DNA of 64,000 nucleotides from Vulcanimicrobiota bacterium (GTDB taxonomy: Bacteria; Vulcanimicrobiota; Vulcanimicrobiia; Vulcanimicrobiales; Vulcanimicrobiaceae). Made by a program: the position numbers. Position 1 is the stretch's first letter, and the number at the start of each line of letters is the position of its first letter. Positions 42,601 through 45,600 of the stretch are shown in pieces. The stretch is from contig CAWHWQ010000002.1 of assembly GCA_963833095.1 (NCBI GenBank), positions 96,001-160,000 of the forward strand. The letters run 5' to 3'.

Positions 42601-45600
42601 GATCGTCCCCGTGACCGCCAGGATGCCGAGCACGAGCCACAGCCAGTGCGGCACAAGTAACGCATACGTACCGGCGTGGAAGATCACGTCGCGCGGATAG
42701 ATCGCGGTGGTCGCGTCGATCATGCGCAGGAAAATGATGGCGACCAGTGCCGTTGCAAGCAACTTTGTGCGCGCGCGCAAACCTTGGTTGCGCCCGCGCG
42801 TGATCCCGAGCATATCGTCGGCGAAGCCGATGGCGCCACAGGCGAGCACGAGAAAGACGATCGGCGCGGCAAACGGCGCCGAGGGATTCACGAGCAAGAA
42901 CAGCATGGGTACGAGGAAGGCGATGCCGCCCATCGTGGGCGTGCCCGTCTTGGTTTGGTGCGACGCCGGCGCATCTTCATAGGCGTGCTGAGCAAGCTGC
43001 ATACGCCGCAGCAGCGGTAGCAGCAGACCGGCAACCGCCAGGGAGAACACGAACCCGATGCCACAGAAGATCGCGATCGTCGCTAACATTGCAGCGGGTT
43101 CTCCCCGGCGGCGCGCCACTTGAGCACCACGATCGGCGTTTGTTCGTCGCCGTTGCCGTGGGGGTTGTCGAGCAGCGCCTGTTCGACCGCGGCGCGATCG
43201 ACGCCGCGCGAGGCTCCCAGCACTTTAGCTTTGTGCAGATCGTTGGCATCGACGATCGCGCAGGCTACGCCGGTCACGGCGGCGATCGTTTCGCAGACAT
43301 CGTCGGGATCGCGTGGTGACAACACGATTGCGCGCTCGTAGGGCGGCATCGTTCCGGTGTAGCCGTCGATCGCGGCGATCGCCTCGCCCATCAATTCGTA
43401 GAATACGCCGCGCTTGCCAAAAACGCGGCCGACCGCATGCAGCACTGAAGCGAAAAACACGCGCCATGCGCCGACCTGATCGATCACGAGTTGGACGGAT
43501 TCGGGCTGACTGACCGTCGCGAGCGCGCCGGCTCGGCGCGCAAGCACGTAGGCTAAACGCGACGGGCGAATGTGCTCCGCCGCGACGAACTCACCTTGCG
43601 CGATGGCTACGGCTGTTTCGGAGATCGCGATCACGTCGCCAGAACGCGCGATGCCATGCACTGCCGCCGCGACGAGCACGCTAAGGTCGTCGCCCTCGCG
43701 CACGATGCGCGTGCGGACGGGGATTGCAACCAAACCGGGAATGCGCGTGGCCGTCAACGCCGTAACTCCTCGACGATTTCCTCTAACTTATATTTGCGCG
43801 AACCCTTGAGCAACACCGCGTCGCCGGCTCGCGCGTGATCGCGCACCCACCGCGCTGCCTGTTCGTTCGTCATGAAGGGCACGATGCGCTCCGAGGGGAG
43901 CCCTGCGCTGCGCGCTCCTAGAGCAAGCTCGCCCGCGAATTCGCCGCCGACCAGCATCACGTCGACCTTGGTGGCCGCGGCATGTCCGCCGACACGGCGA
44001 TGTAAGTCGGCCGCTCCCTCGCCAAGCTCGGCCATGCTTGCAAGCAGGGCGATATGGCGCGGCGCAGATTCGGCCGCAAAGGCGTCGAGCGCCGCCATCA
44101 TCCCGGCGGCGTTGGCGTTGTAGGCATCGAAGATCAAAACCACGCCGCTCTGAAGCGCGATGCGCTCGTAACGCCCGCTGGGCAATTCGATTTGCGGAAT
44201 CGCCGCGACGATCTGACGCGGATCGATGCCGTGCTCACGCGCTGCGGCGATCGCGGCTGCGAGATTGGCGCGATTGTGCAAGCCGGGAACGCGCGCGTCG
44301 ATCGAGTAGTTGTCGTCGCGGTCGCCGTCGATTTCGAGCCACTGCTGGGCGCCCGAGATCGCGCTGACGCGCCCGTGCATCGGGATGTCGCCGCCGACTT
44401 CGCCCGCAAAAAACCAATGCGAGGGTTTGGCTAGCGACGGCGCGCGGCGAATCGACGTGACGTCGCGCGCATTGAGAATCGCGCGCGCGCCGGTCGAAAA
44501 GAGCGCCCACTTCGTTTCTTCGAGCCGCTCGCGCGTGCCCATGATTTCCAAATGCGCATCACCGACGTTGGTAAGAATGCCCAGATCCGGCCGCGCGGCG
44601 CGTACCAGCCGCTCGATGTCGCCGTAGTGCCGCGCGCCCAACTCGATGACGAGCAACTCGTGCTTGTCGTTGTCGGCGGCTAGCAGCAGTTTGCTCACGC
44701 CGACTTCGTTATTCTCATTGGCGGGCGAGGCCAAGATGCGATCGCCGTAGCGCACGGAAAGCAGTTGCGCGGCAAAGGCTTTGGTCGTGGTCTTCCCCGC
44801 GCTGCCGGTGATCGCGAGCACGCGTCCGCGAAAATGCGCGCGCGCCACGCCGGCCAGATCCAAGTAGGCCTGCAAGGTTTCCTCGACCACGAGCGTGGTC
44901 GTGCCCGCAACGGCGGCATCGGGATCCTCGACGATCAAGGCTTTCGCGCCGCGCTCGACGGCTTCGCGTGTGTAGGCATGGCCGTCGAAGTGCTCGCCGC
45001 GCAGCGCAAGAAATGTTTGCCCCGGCACAATGGTGCGGGTGTCGCTCACGACGTCGACGTGCGACGGCGCCGCGTCGATATCGAGCACCTGCGCCTGCGT
45101 CCCCTTGACCGCTTCGTCGAACGTCAGCTTCATGTTCGCGCACCTCGCGCGGCGAGCGCCTCGCGCGCAACGGCGACGTCATCGAAGGGCAGCGTCTGCG
45201 TGCCGATGATTTGATACGTTTCGTGGCCTTTGCCTGCGATGAGCACCACGTCGCCCGGCGCGGCTTCTTCGATCGCGCGGCGAATGGCGATCCGGCGATC
45301 GATTTCGGCCACATGCGGATGCGCGCCGATTCCGGTTTCGATGTCGGCCACGATCGCTTGCGGCGATTCACTGCGCGGATTGTCGCTGGTGACGTAAACG
45401 CGATCTGCAAACGCTGCTGCAATGCGGCCCATCTCCGGGCGCTTGCCGCGATCGCGATCGCCGCCGCACCCGAACACGACGGCCAGCTTGTGCGGCGTCG
45501 TTTCGCGCAGTGCGATCAGCGCGTTCTCGAGCGAATCGGGGGTATGCGAGTAGTCGACCACGACGTCGATATCCCCACCGCTGACGTGCTCCATGCGTCC

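Follow-up and report, generated by a model that had tools for sequence, protein, structure and literature searches.

AsnB/LtsA-type amidotransferases amidate the mDAP of peptidoglycan, and in Negativicutes tethering of the outer membrane by OmpM relies on a polyamine modification. For Selenomonas and Veillonella, Kamio and co-workers (cited in PMC10628300 and PMC12826042) reportedly described a membrane-bound activity by which peptidoglycan D-Glu acquires cadaverine or putrescine, to which no gene is assigned in the literature texts that could be searched. MurT-GatD amidates the α-carboxyl of D-Glu on lipid II (PMC3266927). The fold dealt with here is that of another enzyme, the F420:glutamate ligase CofE, in which a C-terminal tail helps to close the site for cofactor and glutamate, with R234 of this tail stacking on the F420 ring (PMC10861534). 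Here we analyse a CofE-fold gene, termed X, in the window, namely the whole 64,000-nucleotide stretch of Vulcanimicrobiota DNA under study (contig CAWHWQ010000002.1, positions 96,001 to 160,000).

Gene organization at the murF-mraY junction

Gene X (43083..43757) is located on the minus strand, as are all features described below, and has an open reading frame encoding 224 aa from a TTG start. Upstream lies murF (43754..45133), the UDP-MurNAc-tripeptide:D-Ala-D-Ala ligase gene, the product of which matches Pfam Mur_ligase, Mur_ligase_M and Mur_ligase_C; downstream lies mraY (42130..43089), encoding the phospho-MurNAc-pentapeptide translocase with matches to Glycos_transf_4 and MraY_sig1. The flanking murE (45130..46581) and murD (40739..42211) were assigned by Pfam and synteny, and FtsW was confirmed as well. 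The start of X and the stop of murF share the four nucleotides TTGA (43754..43757), in which the TTG occupies 43757-43755 and the TGA 43756-43754 on the minus strand. A Shine-Dalgarno-like GAGGAG (43766..43771), putatively serving X, sits 8 nt 5' of the TTG within the end of murF. At the other end, the TAG stop of X (43085-43083) and the ATG of mraY (43089-43087) fall within a 7-nt overlap (43083..43089), and a GGGGAG precedes the mraY ATG. The initial annotation had placed a gene wedged between murF and mraY with its ends overlapping both, and the reading frame, the codon overlaps and the Pfam identities of the neighbors all bear this out.

Structure of the X protein and comparison with CofE

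At the sequence level, the likeness of X to CofE is limited. The Pfam F420_ligase profile (PF01996) matches with an E-value of 1e-14 and 55 bits against a gathering score of 25, covering only model positions 2-131 of 218, whereas the CofE equivalogs of NCBIfam remain far below their cut-offs (TIGR01916, 37.7 versus 180.65 bits; NF009809, 35.1 versus 274 bits). Sequence matches to the PDB entries 7uld, 2g9i and 2phn have an E-value of 1e-4 and span residues 17-84. These Pfam, NCBIfam and PDB values reproduce the weak scores noted earlier. Profile-profile comparison of the family against true CofE by hhalign gave a weak similarity (E-values from 3e-4 to 2e-3) in a partly inconsistent register, and in a quick tree true CofE stands apart from the family on a branch of 3.63.

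An AlphaFold2 model built from 78 sequences reached a pLDDT of 92.8 and displays the CofE fold along the entire protein. Comparison by VIA aligned residues 8..224 of the model with residues 2..225 of 2phn chain A, with a Z-score of 15.0 and an rmsd of 3.1 over 180 residues at 27% identity, and the next-best row after CofE had a Z-score of 4.7. The Foldseek search gave a best E-value of 9e-11, and at E-values up to 4e-9 returned CofE entries only. Mur ligase domains (Mur_ligase_M and Mur_ligase_C) have no Pfam match in the protein at E≤1, and MurE appeared at a Foldseek E-value of 6.6 only. A homodimer prediction for the protein scored 0.00 with a mark of 0.42, which weighs neither for nor against binding.

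The fold of residues 8-224 is thus common to X and to CofE and FbiB's N-terminal domain (PF01996, TIGR01916; PDB 2PHN, 2G9I, 7ULD). Both families also possess the N-terminal motif GDD...GD...S/E-T-x-x-x-x-x-Q/E-G-R, and the acyl-phosphate amide-ligase chemistry of CofE is presumably the same in X. However, the two differ at several elements. X ends at residue 224, which falls close to chain residue 225 in the alignment, whereas CofE extends ~25 residues further with a tail that includes R234 in EIYRSEEED and has no counterpart in X. As judged from length and secondary-structure accounting, the strand region around F92 of CofE would be replaced by helices in X, and the domain-swapped hairpin appears to be deleted (~23 aa). 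In addition, the lysine of the CofE SKAEGR stretch is substituted by a hydrophobic residue in the family of X.

Search for F420 biosynthesis genes

Gene X is the sole match to PF01996 in its own genome, which is 80.7% complete. Profile searches of this genome did not find CofC, gave CofG-like matches of no more than 29 and 21 bits where the cut-off is 213, and detected a single CofD-family match that falls short of the F420 CofD equivalog. The earlier claim that the genome holds no F420 biosynthesis genes is upheld by the negative CofC, CofG and CofD searches. The F420 CofD profile (TIGR01819), which matched in three archaea used as positive controls, had no match in any of 353 genomes of the window's order, Baltobacterales, nor in its 190 high-quality genomes, nor in 201 sampled Negativicutes; the 353-genome tallies, for CofD here and for the ortholog below, include 14 unpublished genomes. 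Because CofD is missing throughout the order (0/353; 0/190 at high quality), the worry that F420 genes hide in the missing 19% of the genome can be set aside. The window gene is not an F420 gene.

In one Acidimicrobiales genome, a true cofD-cofE locus (CofE at 255.6 bits against a cut-off of 180.65) and a paralog of the present family occur together. A further reading, in which X would be a genuine if divergent CofE with F420, or some other deazaflavin or flavin that the cell imports, as its substrate, is extremely improbable: it would agree with the Pfam score above gathering and with the name that NCBI gives to its relatives, but it conflicts with the equivalog score, with the CofD counts of 0/353 and 0/201, with a protein that stops ~25 residues short of the CofE end, R234 lying in the part without counterpart (PMC10861534), with the coexistence of a genuine CofE and the paralog in one genome, and with the very long branch between X and true CofE.

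Conserved residues

Sixteen residues of X (T16, D41, E47, Q54, G117, F119, Y120, D131, D170, N172, D173, N198, P199, G201, T207 and P208) are retained in no fewer than 11 of the 12 rows of the clade found in the cell-wall (dcw) operon and in no fewer than 57 of the 64 remaining rows. D131 aligns with D109, the Asp of the CofE NAGID motif. In one alignment D170 aligns with D150, the Asp of the TDTN motif of Af-CofE, and hhalign shifts this second motif by 2; the register of VDANDLG against the CofE TDTNGR is thus ambiguous by two residues between alignments. We take D109 and D150 of CofE to be metal ligands. Two arginines of the wider family, in QGR and FYR, are changed to Glu in the window's clade (R56E in 9/12 rows, R121E in 11/12), and therefore X may differ in substrate or have lost a function. 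Judged from the alignment, the conservation pattern of the family is enzyme-like.

This pattern bears on a quite unlikely alternative, that X has no catalytic role and serves as an adaptor, binding the stem peptide or the nucleotide precursor and delivering the product of MurF to MraY, or regulating the two. Translational coupling to murF and mraY, the existence of MurF fusions and the loss of the two arginines in the window's clade would suit such a role. However, D41, E47, D131, D170, N172, D173 and N198 are near-invariant across phyla and architectures, as is typical of a catalytic metal-nucleotide site, and in other lineages the family is also found far from murF and mraY.

Conservation in the Baltobacterales

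An ortholog of X was found in 332 of the 353 genomes of the order and in 189 of the 190 of high quality. The gene order murE-murF-X-mraY-murD is retained in all 20 loci of other genera and all 11 of the same genus (31/31 in total), and it also occurs in one locus (L072) beyond these. Across the 20 loci of other genera, identity to the window protein ranges from 68 to 77% for X versus 49 to 68% for MurF; X exceeds MurF in every one of them and has the highest identity among the five genes in 15. As X is more conserved than the adjacent Mur ligases, it probably does something indispensable to the cell.

The phylum had been described as diderm, and judged by its gene content the order is so, with Omp85 present in 194 of 196 order genomes at least 90% complete (five of them unpublished); the cultivated relative Vulcanimicrobium alpinus has an outer membrane (PMC9758169). 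SLH domains are patchy in the order: of 97 genomes with a completeness of 95% or more (two of them unpublished), 45 have them. They were found neither in the four other genomes of the window's genus that were searched nor in the window's own genome. A strict SLH/OmpM tethering link in this order is rejected on these counts.

Subfamily members in other phyla

Gene X belongs to a large, unnamed CofE-fold subfamily that is new here and comprises 745 representative clusters over several phyla, including Cyanobacteria. Because X sits in this subfamily, CofE is not its only detectable kin, as had been stated at first. NCBI labels the relatives "coenzyme F420-0:L-glutamate ligase", the Protein Atlas holds only clusters auto-named F420 ligase, and the literature searches turned up no account of this gene. 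The subfamily was detected in 199 of 201 Negativicutes, an even sample of the class to which a Pelosinus MAG belongs, counted at class level, not genus by genus; X is thus a core gene in Baltobacterales and Negativicutes. In two actinobacterial classes it is sporadic (1/48 and 5/151). The search for related loci rested on a 13-row alignment, as a 78-row alignment gave no conserved stretch. Homologs of one locus labelled "Selenomonadaceae" (L024) carry the labels Eremiobacterota or Armatimonadetes, with no named Selenomonas or Veillonella among them.

Among 28 scanned representatives, five are fused to Amidase_3, a muramoyl-alanine amidase, five to AsnB/GATase domains (GATase_7 and/or Asn_synthase, with a further example in L125), one to Polysacc_deac_1, and three include an MraY part. 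In-frame fusions of MurF to the CofE-fold domain are present in P0125 and L115. Long open frames in L102, L108 and L117 were rejected as murF-X fusions because murF lies in another frame. As for neighbors, 10 of the 15 Negativicutes loci, and L095 as well, have a gene of the glutamate racemase family upstream in the same orientation, and Ddl adjoins the subfamily gene in L054. AdoMet_dc and Hist_deacetyl each occur in 2 of the 15 Negativicutes loci, Hist_deacetyl also being present in both scanned Sporomusaceae-type loci (L081 and L095), and the Orn/Lys decarboxylase OKR_DC_1 is encoded near the subfamily gene in two actinobacterial loci. The racemase adjacency may partly reflect an insertion into an old murI-rph-rdgB string, and related loci are not independent of one another.

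Outside the order and the Negativicutes, the contexts are heterogeneous and include an ECF transporter, tRNA synthetases (GlnS among them) and NAGPA, together with further contexts or fusions involving GNAT, TPR and adenylate kinase. This variety, and a membrane tether compatible with any lipid-bound substrate, would be expected if X ligated some other molecule (for example an undecaprenyl-linked glycan, lipid, small metabolite or cofactor tail) and simply shared its expression with cell-wall genes. We consider this unlikely, given that independent architectures and neighborhoods converge on peptidoglycan (MurF, Amidase_3, AsnB-like, Polysacc_deac_1, Ddl and the racemase family) and that all 31 order loci keep the gene at the tightly overlapping murF-mraY junction.

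A membrane anchor accompanies most relatives, in the form of a partner with a TM helix and a β-sandwich that is either fused or adjacent. In Negativicutes, the partner is encoded by a neighboring ORF, its N-terminal TM helix being followed by the β-sandwich. The fused forms suggest that enzyme and partner may associate physically. Fold searches with the partner returned generic Ig-like β-sandwiches, the best being the luminal domain of TMEM106B at a Z-score of 8.3, tied with many others. The partner domain was not found in the window's own, 80.7% complete genome.

Proposed function

Since the host bacteria do not make F420 and the relatives are fused or adjacent to cell-wall genes, X probably performs an undescribed ligation on a cell-wall precursor. 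We propose, at roughly even odds (a probability of about 0.5), that it is an amide ligase that depends on a nucleotide and modifies a carboxylate in the stem peptide of a peptidoglycan precursor. The initial annotation had called X a new peptidoglycan-precursor enzyme. The link to precursors now draws on synteny, on the fusions to MurF, Amidase_3, AsnB-like and polysaccharide-deacetylase domains and on adjacency to racemase-family and Ddl genes, and X keeps an enzyme-like CofE fold; UDP-MurNAc-pentapeptide as the substrate and a γ-glutamyl branch as the chemistry, both named at first, stay conjectural. Fold, conservation, synteny, fusions, distribution and the lack of the F420 pathway are observations, whereas catalysis, substrate, stage and amine are all inferred. 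Several points weigh against the proposal: the hydrophobic residue in place of the CofE lysine, the two arginines replaced by Glu, the ambiguous motif register and weak profile similarity to true CofE, the mixed contexts outside the order and the Negativicutes, the possible insertion origin of the racemase adjacency, and the sporadic occurrence in actinobacterial classes.

The proposed enzyme would be a cytoplasmic CofE-fold ligase of peptidoglycan precursor synthesis in which the elements that bind F420 have been lost. The substrate carboxylate would be converted to an acyl phosphate, as in CofE, at a putative metal-nucleotide site built from D41, E47, D131, D170, N172 and D173, and an amine would then attack the acyl phosphate. 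The target may be a free carboxylate of the stem peptide, most likely the α-carboxylate of D-Glu, to which the racemase-family neighbor points, and less likely the ε-carboxylate of mDAP. The reaction may take place between MurF and the lipid intermediates, on UDP-MurNAc-pentapeptide, lipid I or lipid II; the membrane anchor in most relatives speaks at least as strongly for a lipid-linked intermediate. The amine donor could be a diamine or polyamine, an amino acid or ammonia; the decarboxylase, AdoMet-decarboxylase and deacetylase-family neighbors leave room for amines that are not amino acids. The fused or adjacent TM/β-sandwich partner would tether the enzyme to the membrane in most lineages, whereas in the window's order the partner would have been lost, its place being taken by translational coupling, and sometimes fusion, to MurF, with MraY following.

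The version proposed at first, a CofE-like addition of a γ-glutamyl-type amino acid to the stem peptide of soluble UDP-MurNAc-pentapeptide, is very doubtful. It is consistent with the CofE fold, with the position between murF and mraY, and with the MurF fusions, which fit a soluble nucleotide substrate. However, nothing indicates a glutamate donor, the tail that helps to close the cofactor and glutamate site of CofE is missing (PMC10861534), most relatives are membrane-tethered, which better fits a lipid-linked substrate, and the neighbors include decarboxylase, deacetylase-family and AdoMet decarboxylase genes.

Compared with known modifiers, the proposed amide ligase may be a functional analogue of MurT-GatD, in which a stem-peptide carboxylate is likewise activated at the expense of NTP at the precursor stage and then attacked by an amine. 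The two are not homologous, as MurT is a member of the Mur ligase family, to which X has no match. The AsnB/LtsA type differs from X in fold and in chemistry (adenylation), and the window protein has no such domain; nevertheless, the fusion of GATase_7 and/or Asn_synthase to the CofE-fold domain in 5 of 28 representatives and in L125 suggests joint tailoring of stem-peptide carboxylates.

The polyamine-linking activity offers a more specific, tentative assignment. The subfamily is near-universal (199/201) in Negativicutes, the class with described polyaminated peptidoglycan, and comes with a membrane-anchor partner, an amide-forming fold and a racemase-family neighbor at 10 of 15 loci. The window's order differs in that SLH domains are only patchy (45/97). 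We raise as a possibility, though an unlikely one, that the subfamily and its TM/β-sandwich partner are the long-sought peptidoglycan polyamine ligase, which would join cadaverine or putrescine to the D-Glu α-carboxylate of precursors; the Baltobacterales version would then install the same or a related amine on the stem peptide, and an essential modification not described before would be shared by the phylum and several further Terrabacteria lineages.

The subfamily thus represents a concrete candidate for a 40-year-old gap, the polyamine-attaching enzyme of Selenomonas and Veillonella on which OmpM-mediated outer-membrane tethering depends; a Negativicute amenable to genetics and an Eremiobacterota strain in culture are both available. 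If the proposal is true, the automatic annotation "coenzyme F420-0:L-glutamate ligase" would be wrong in hundreds of F420-less genomes, and the CofE fold would have a second, widespread role in cell-wall synthesis.

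A conserved CofE-fold gene within the dcw operon

The gene under study, termed X, is an open reading frame of 224 codons with a TTG start (43083-43757, minus strand) that lies between murF and mraY in the dcw operon, with MurE, MurD and FtsW as its further neighbours assigned by Pfam. At the murF/X junction (minus-strand sequence GAGGAGTTACGGCGTTGACGG), the TTG start (43757-43755) overlaps the murF stop codon TGA (43756-43754), and a GAGGAG sits 8 nt upstream of the TTG. At the X/mraY junction (minus-strand sequence GGGGAGAACCCGCTGCAATGTTAGCG), the ATG of mraY (43089-43087) is located 7 nt inside X, before the X stop codon TAG (43085-43083).

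An ortholog of X was found in 332 of the 353 genomes of the order, in 189/190 high-quality genomes and in 77/79 genera; this tally and those of TIGR01819, Omp85 and SLH take in some unpublished genomes. The order murE-murF-X-mraY-murD is kept in all 20 loci from other genera, in all 11 same-genus loci and in the additional locus L072. Over the same 20 other-genus loci, X shares 68-77% identity with the window protein, compared to 49-68% for MurF, 50-68% for MurE, 52-77% for MraY and 53-74% for MurD. Its identity exceeds that of MurF at every one of these loci; among the five genes it has the highest value in 15, ties in 3 and is surpassed by MraY in 2. In one of them (L115), MurF and X are truly fused in frame into a 695-residue protein with Mur_ligase, Mur_ligase_M and F420_ligase domains; the family representative P0125 (736 residues) is another MurF-X fusion. 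Three further long open frames over murF and X were rejected as fusions, since murF lies in a different frame. The operon also holds a second unexplained insertion, a DUF2332 gene (PF10094, E-value of 1.8e-72) at 38654-39643 on the minus strand, between ftsW and murG.

X is distinct from the F420 pathway

X is a non-F420 gene. The initial annotation reported no F420 biosynthesis genes, in agreement with our searches: in the window's own genome (80.7% complete), the one PF01996 match is X itself, no CofC was found, nothing scored above 29 bits against the CofG cut-off of 213, and the one CofD-family match falls below the F420 CofD equivalog. The CofD model TIGR01819, with positive controls in three archaea, has no match in the 353 genomes of the order (0/190 high-quality genomes) or in 201 sampled Negativicutes. 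Both kinds of gene occur in an Acidimicrobiales genome (G354), which has a true cofD-cofE locus (L119 20-2190; TIGR01916, 255.6 bits against a cut-off of 180.65) and, at another site, the CofE paralog of the X family (L068 5929-6645) near an Orn/Lys/Arg decarboxylase gene. A quick tree separates true CofE from all 88 family rows by a branch that is 3.63 changes per column long (support 100).

Overall structure of X

The sequence scores of the initial annotation were reproduced, with F420_ligase at an E-value of 1e-14 and 55 bits (model positions 2-131 of 218), the CofE equivalogs at 37.7 and 35.1 bits against cut-offs of 180.65 and 274, and the Af-CofE chains in the PDB at an E-value of 1e-4 over residues 17-84. 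X has many relatives, which fall into 1718 clusters at 90% identity (E≤1e-3); at 50% identity there are 745 representatives, of which 99 reach E≤1e-30. Whereas an earlier model from 6 sequences was unusable, the model from 78 sequences is good, with a mean pLDDT of 92.8 and a pTM of 0.88. Among 48,161 solved chains, its sole strong structural match is Af-CofE (2phn_A), with a Z-score of 15.0 and an RMSD of 3.1 over 180 aligned residues (27% identity; model residues 8-224 against chain residues 2-225), compared to a Z-score of 4.7 for the second-best row. A Foldseek search returned CofE entries alone at E≤4e-9. Contrary to the earlier view that the N-terminal half alone matches CofE, these matches indicate that the modelled CofE fold spans the whole protein.

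Af-CofE sites were placed in native numbering (7ULD index minus 2) on a sequence from a phmmer search with true CofE: F92 in DFPFLLVKA, D109 in NAGID, D150-T151-N152 in TDTN, G153-C155 in GRC, and R234 in the tail EIYRSEEED. X keeps the N-terminal motif of CofE (GDD, GD and S-E-T...Q-G); by contrast, the region of F92 is occupied in the X model by a set of helices (H85-128). According to the model, CofE possesses ~25 more residues past the end of the X chain, and its R234, which stacks on the F420 ring (PMC10861534), would have no counterpart in X. Accounting of length and secondary structure further suggests that the domain-swapped β-hairpin of CofE, which like the F92 strand contacts F420, is deleted in X. 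Residues D131 and D170 of X are paired with CofE D109 and D150, respectively, which we take to be metal binders, with hhalign moving the second motif by two residues.

Comparison of 12 rows of the dcw clade, the window's own branch of the family, with 64 other rows revealed near-invariant T16, D41, E47, Q54, A69, G96, G117, F119, Y120, G124, D131, P139, P148, D170, N172, D173, N198, P199, G201, T207 and P208. At the sequence level, such conservation is typical of enzymes with a metal-nucleotide site and would point to a catalytic X. However, the CofE motif lysine is replaced by a hydrophobic residue in the X family, and two arginines of the wider family have changed in the window's clade: residue 56 (QGR) is arginine in 56/64 wider-family rows and glutamate in 9/12 clade rows, and residue 121 (FYR) is arginine in 42/64 and glutamate in 11/12. 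Both arginines are retained in the MurF-fused P0125 and in another representative, P0123. The hydrophobic replacement and the R-to-E changes count against a metal-nucleotide enzyme; the R-to-E pair could represent a specificity switch.

Domain partners of the wider subfamily

A species-genome scan for the X subfamily gave 578 confirmed stretches, the best 80 of which are labelled Vulcanimicrobiota/Xenobia, UBP9, Armatimonadetes, Sericytochromatia, several Cyanobacteria, Synergistia, a few Actinomycetota, and Negativicutes (Pelosinus, Dendrosporobacter, Phascolarctobacterium and Acidaminococcales). The family is sporadic in two actinobacterial classes (1/48 and 5/151). A domain scan of 28 representatives revealed fusions to MurF (1), Amidase_3, an N-acetylmuramoyl-L-alanine amidase (5), GATase_7 and/or Asn_synthase (5), and Polysacc_deac_1, GNAT, adenylate kinase and TPR (1 each), in addition to candidate fusions with an MraY part (3). 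A hydrophobic N-terminal segment is absent from all five Amidase_3 fusions. TPR-repeat N-terminal extensions of the CofE-fold domain were observed in two Acidimicrobiia genomes (L123 652-2136 and L124 514-2130).

Many relatives of ~400 residues consist of an N-terminal TM helix and a ~130-residue domain in addition to the CofE fold; the model of this domain (pLDDT 92.5) is a generic Ig-like β-sandwich, with a best Z-score of 8.3 tied with many others. Xenobia, Cyanobacteria and others encode this partner and the CofE-fold domain as one protein, and Negativicutes encode the partner as a separate ORF directly upstream of the CofE-fold gene. The partner protein of 177-199 residues (L081 5848-6393, L095 5908-6483, L127 3470-4009 and others) matches no Pfam family and combines an N-terminal TM helix with an Ig-like β-sandwich and a C-terminal helix (AF2 pLDDT 92.5); a search of the window's own genome, which is 80.7% complete, did not detect it. 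The charge distribution around the helix would place the enzyme side of the TM-anchored forms in the cytoplasm. Fused proteins of ~400-427 residues also occur in L024, labelled Selenomonadaceae, and in several Burkholderiales-labelled records. Their nearest relatives are labelled Eremiobacterota or Armatimonadetes, and in the examined Negativicutes loci the partner and the CofE-fold gene are split; the MAGs in question may be mislabelled. The quick tree places the dcw clade (15 rows including P0125, support 100) inside a clade of 57 rows (support 95) that also contains the TM-anchored forms and amidase fusions, and the AsnB fusions within another clade of 26 rows (support 97).

Gene neighbourhoods outside the order

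Of 201 Negativicutes genomes, sampled evenly across the class to which a Pelosinus MAG belongs, 199 have an X homolog at E≤1e-10, almost always in single copy, with 57-83% identity among the matches listed. Upstream of the CofE-fold gene, a 4HBT thioesterase gene is found in 13, a same-strand glutamate-racemase-family gene (Asp_Glu_race) in 10, and GlmU and Prs in 1 of 15 loci, which come from related genomes and are non-independent. RNase PH, Ham1 and metallophosphoesterase genes lie downstream in 8/15; hydantoinase and a histone-deacetylase-family gene follow in 2/15, as does AdoMet decarboxylase in 2/15 (L138 and L142). The conserved string in L127-L142 (class of genome G356) runs 4HBT thioesterase, glutamate-racemase family, partner, CofE-fold gene, RNase PH, Ham1 and metallophosphoesterase. 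Since the racemase-rph-rdgB string is old in Firmicutes, the partner and CofE-fold pair may simply have been inserted into it. At other loci, Ddl is the upstream neighbour (L054), GNAT genes lie downstream (L067 and L075), and an Orn/Lys/Arg decarboxylase gene overlaps the end of the CofE-fold gene (L070) or is convergent and two genes off (L068).

Cell envelope and proposed function

Gene content marks the order as diderm, with Omp85 present in 194 of the 196 genomes at least 90% complete. Omp85/BamA gave no match in the window's own genome (80.7% complete) and is found in 11/11 same-genus genomes at least 90% complete; the miss is due to incompleteness, and absences in this genome are unreliable. 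For the cultivated Vulcanimicrobium alpinus, an inner membrane, a thin layer of peptidoglycan and an outer membrane with LPS have been described (PMC9758169).

In Negativicutes, the D-Glu α-carboxylate of peptidoglycan bears cadaverine or putrescine, and OmpM attaches to this polyamine-modified wall through its SLH domain (PMC10628300, bioRxiv 10.1101/2021.05.31.446380, PMC12826042). The literature searched names no gene for the diamine-adding activity. A membrane-bound activity, reportedly described by Kamio, puts the diamine on the lipid intermediate. A near-universal, membrane-tethered amide ligase beside a racemase-family gene would make a good candidate for the peptidoglycan polyamine ligase, albeit one we hold at rather long odds. 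For the window's order, the patchy SLH domains (45/97 genomes at least 95% complete, 0/4 in the window's genus) set against a universal X count against this assignment, as do X contexts without a polyamine gene; the R-to-E changes in the window's clade would hint at a different substrate.

What synteny, fusions and neighbours have in common is a link to the stem peptide of peptidoglycan and of its precursors, and the one enzyme known to have the CofE fold uses GTP to activate a carboxylate, which it joins to an amine (PMC10861534). Taken together, they lead us to propose, with a probability of about one half, that X is a nucleotide-dependent amide ligase acting on peptidoglycan precursors, in which it would modify a free carboxylate of the stem peptide. 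The target would be the D-Glu α-carboxylate, favoured because a racemase-family gene adjoins, and X would act on a lipid-linked intermediate, favoured by the membrane tether, or possibly on a soluble nucleotide precursor, which the MurF fusions allow.
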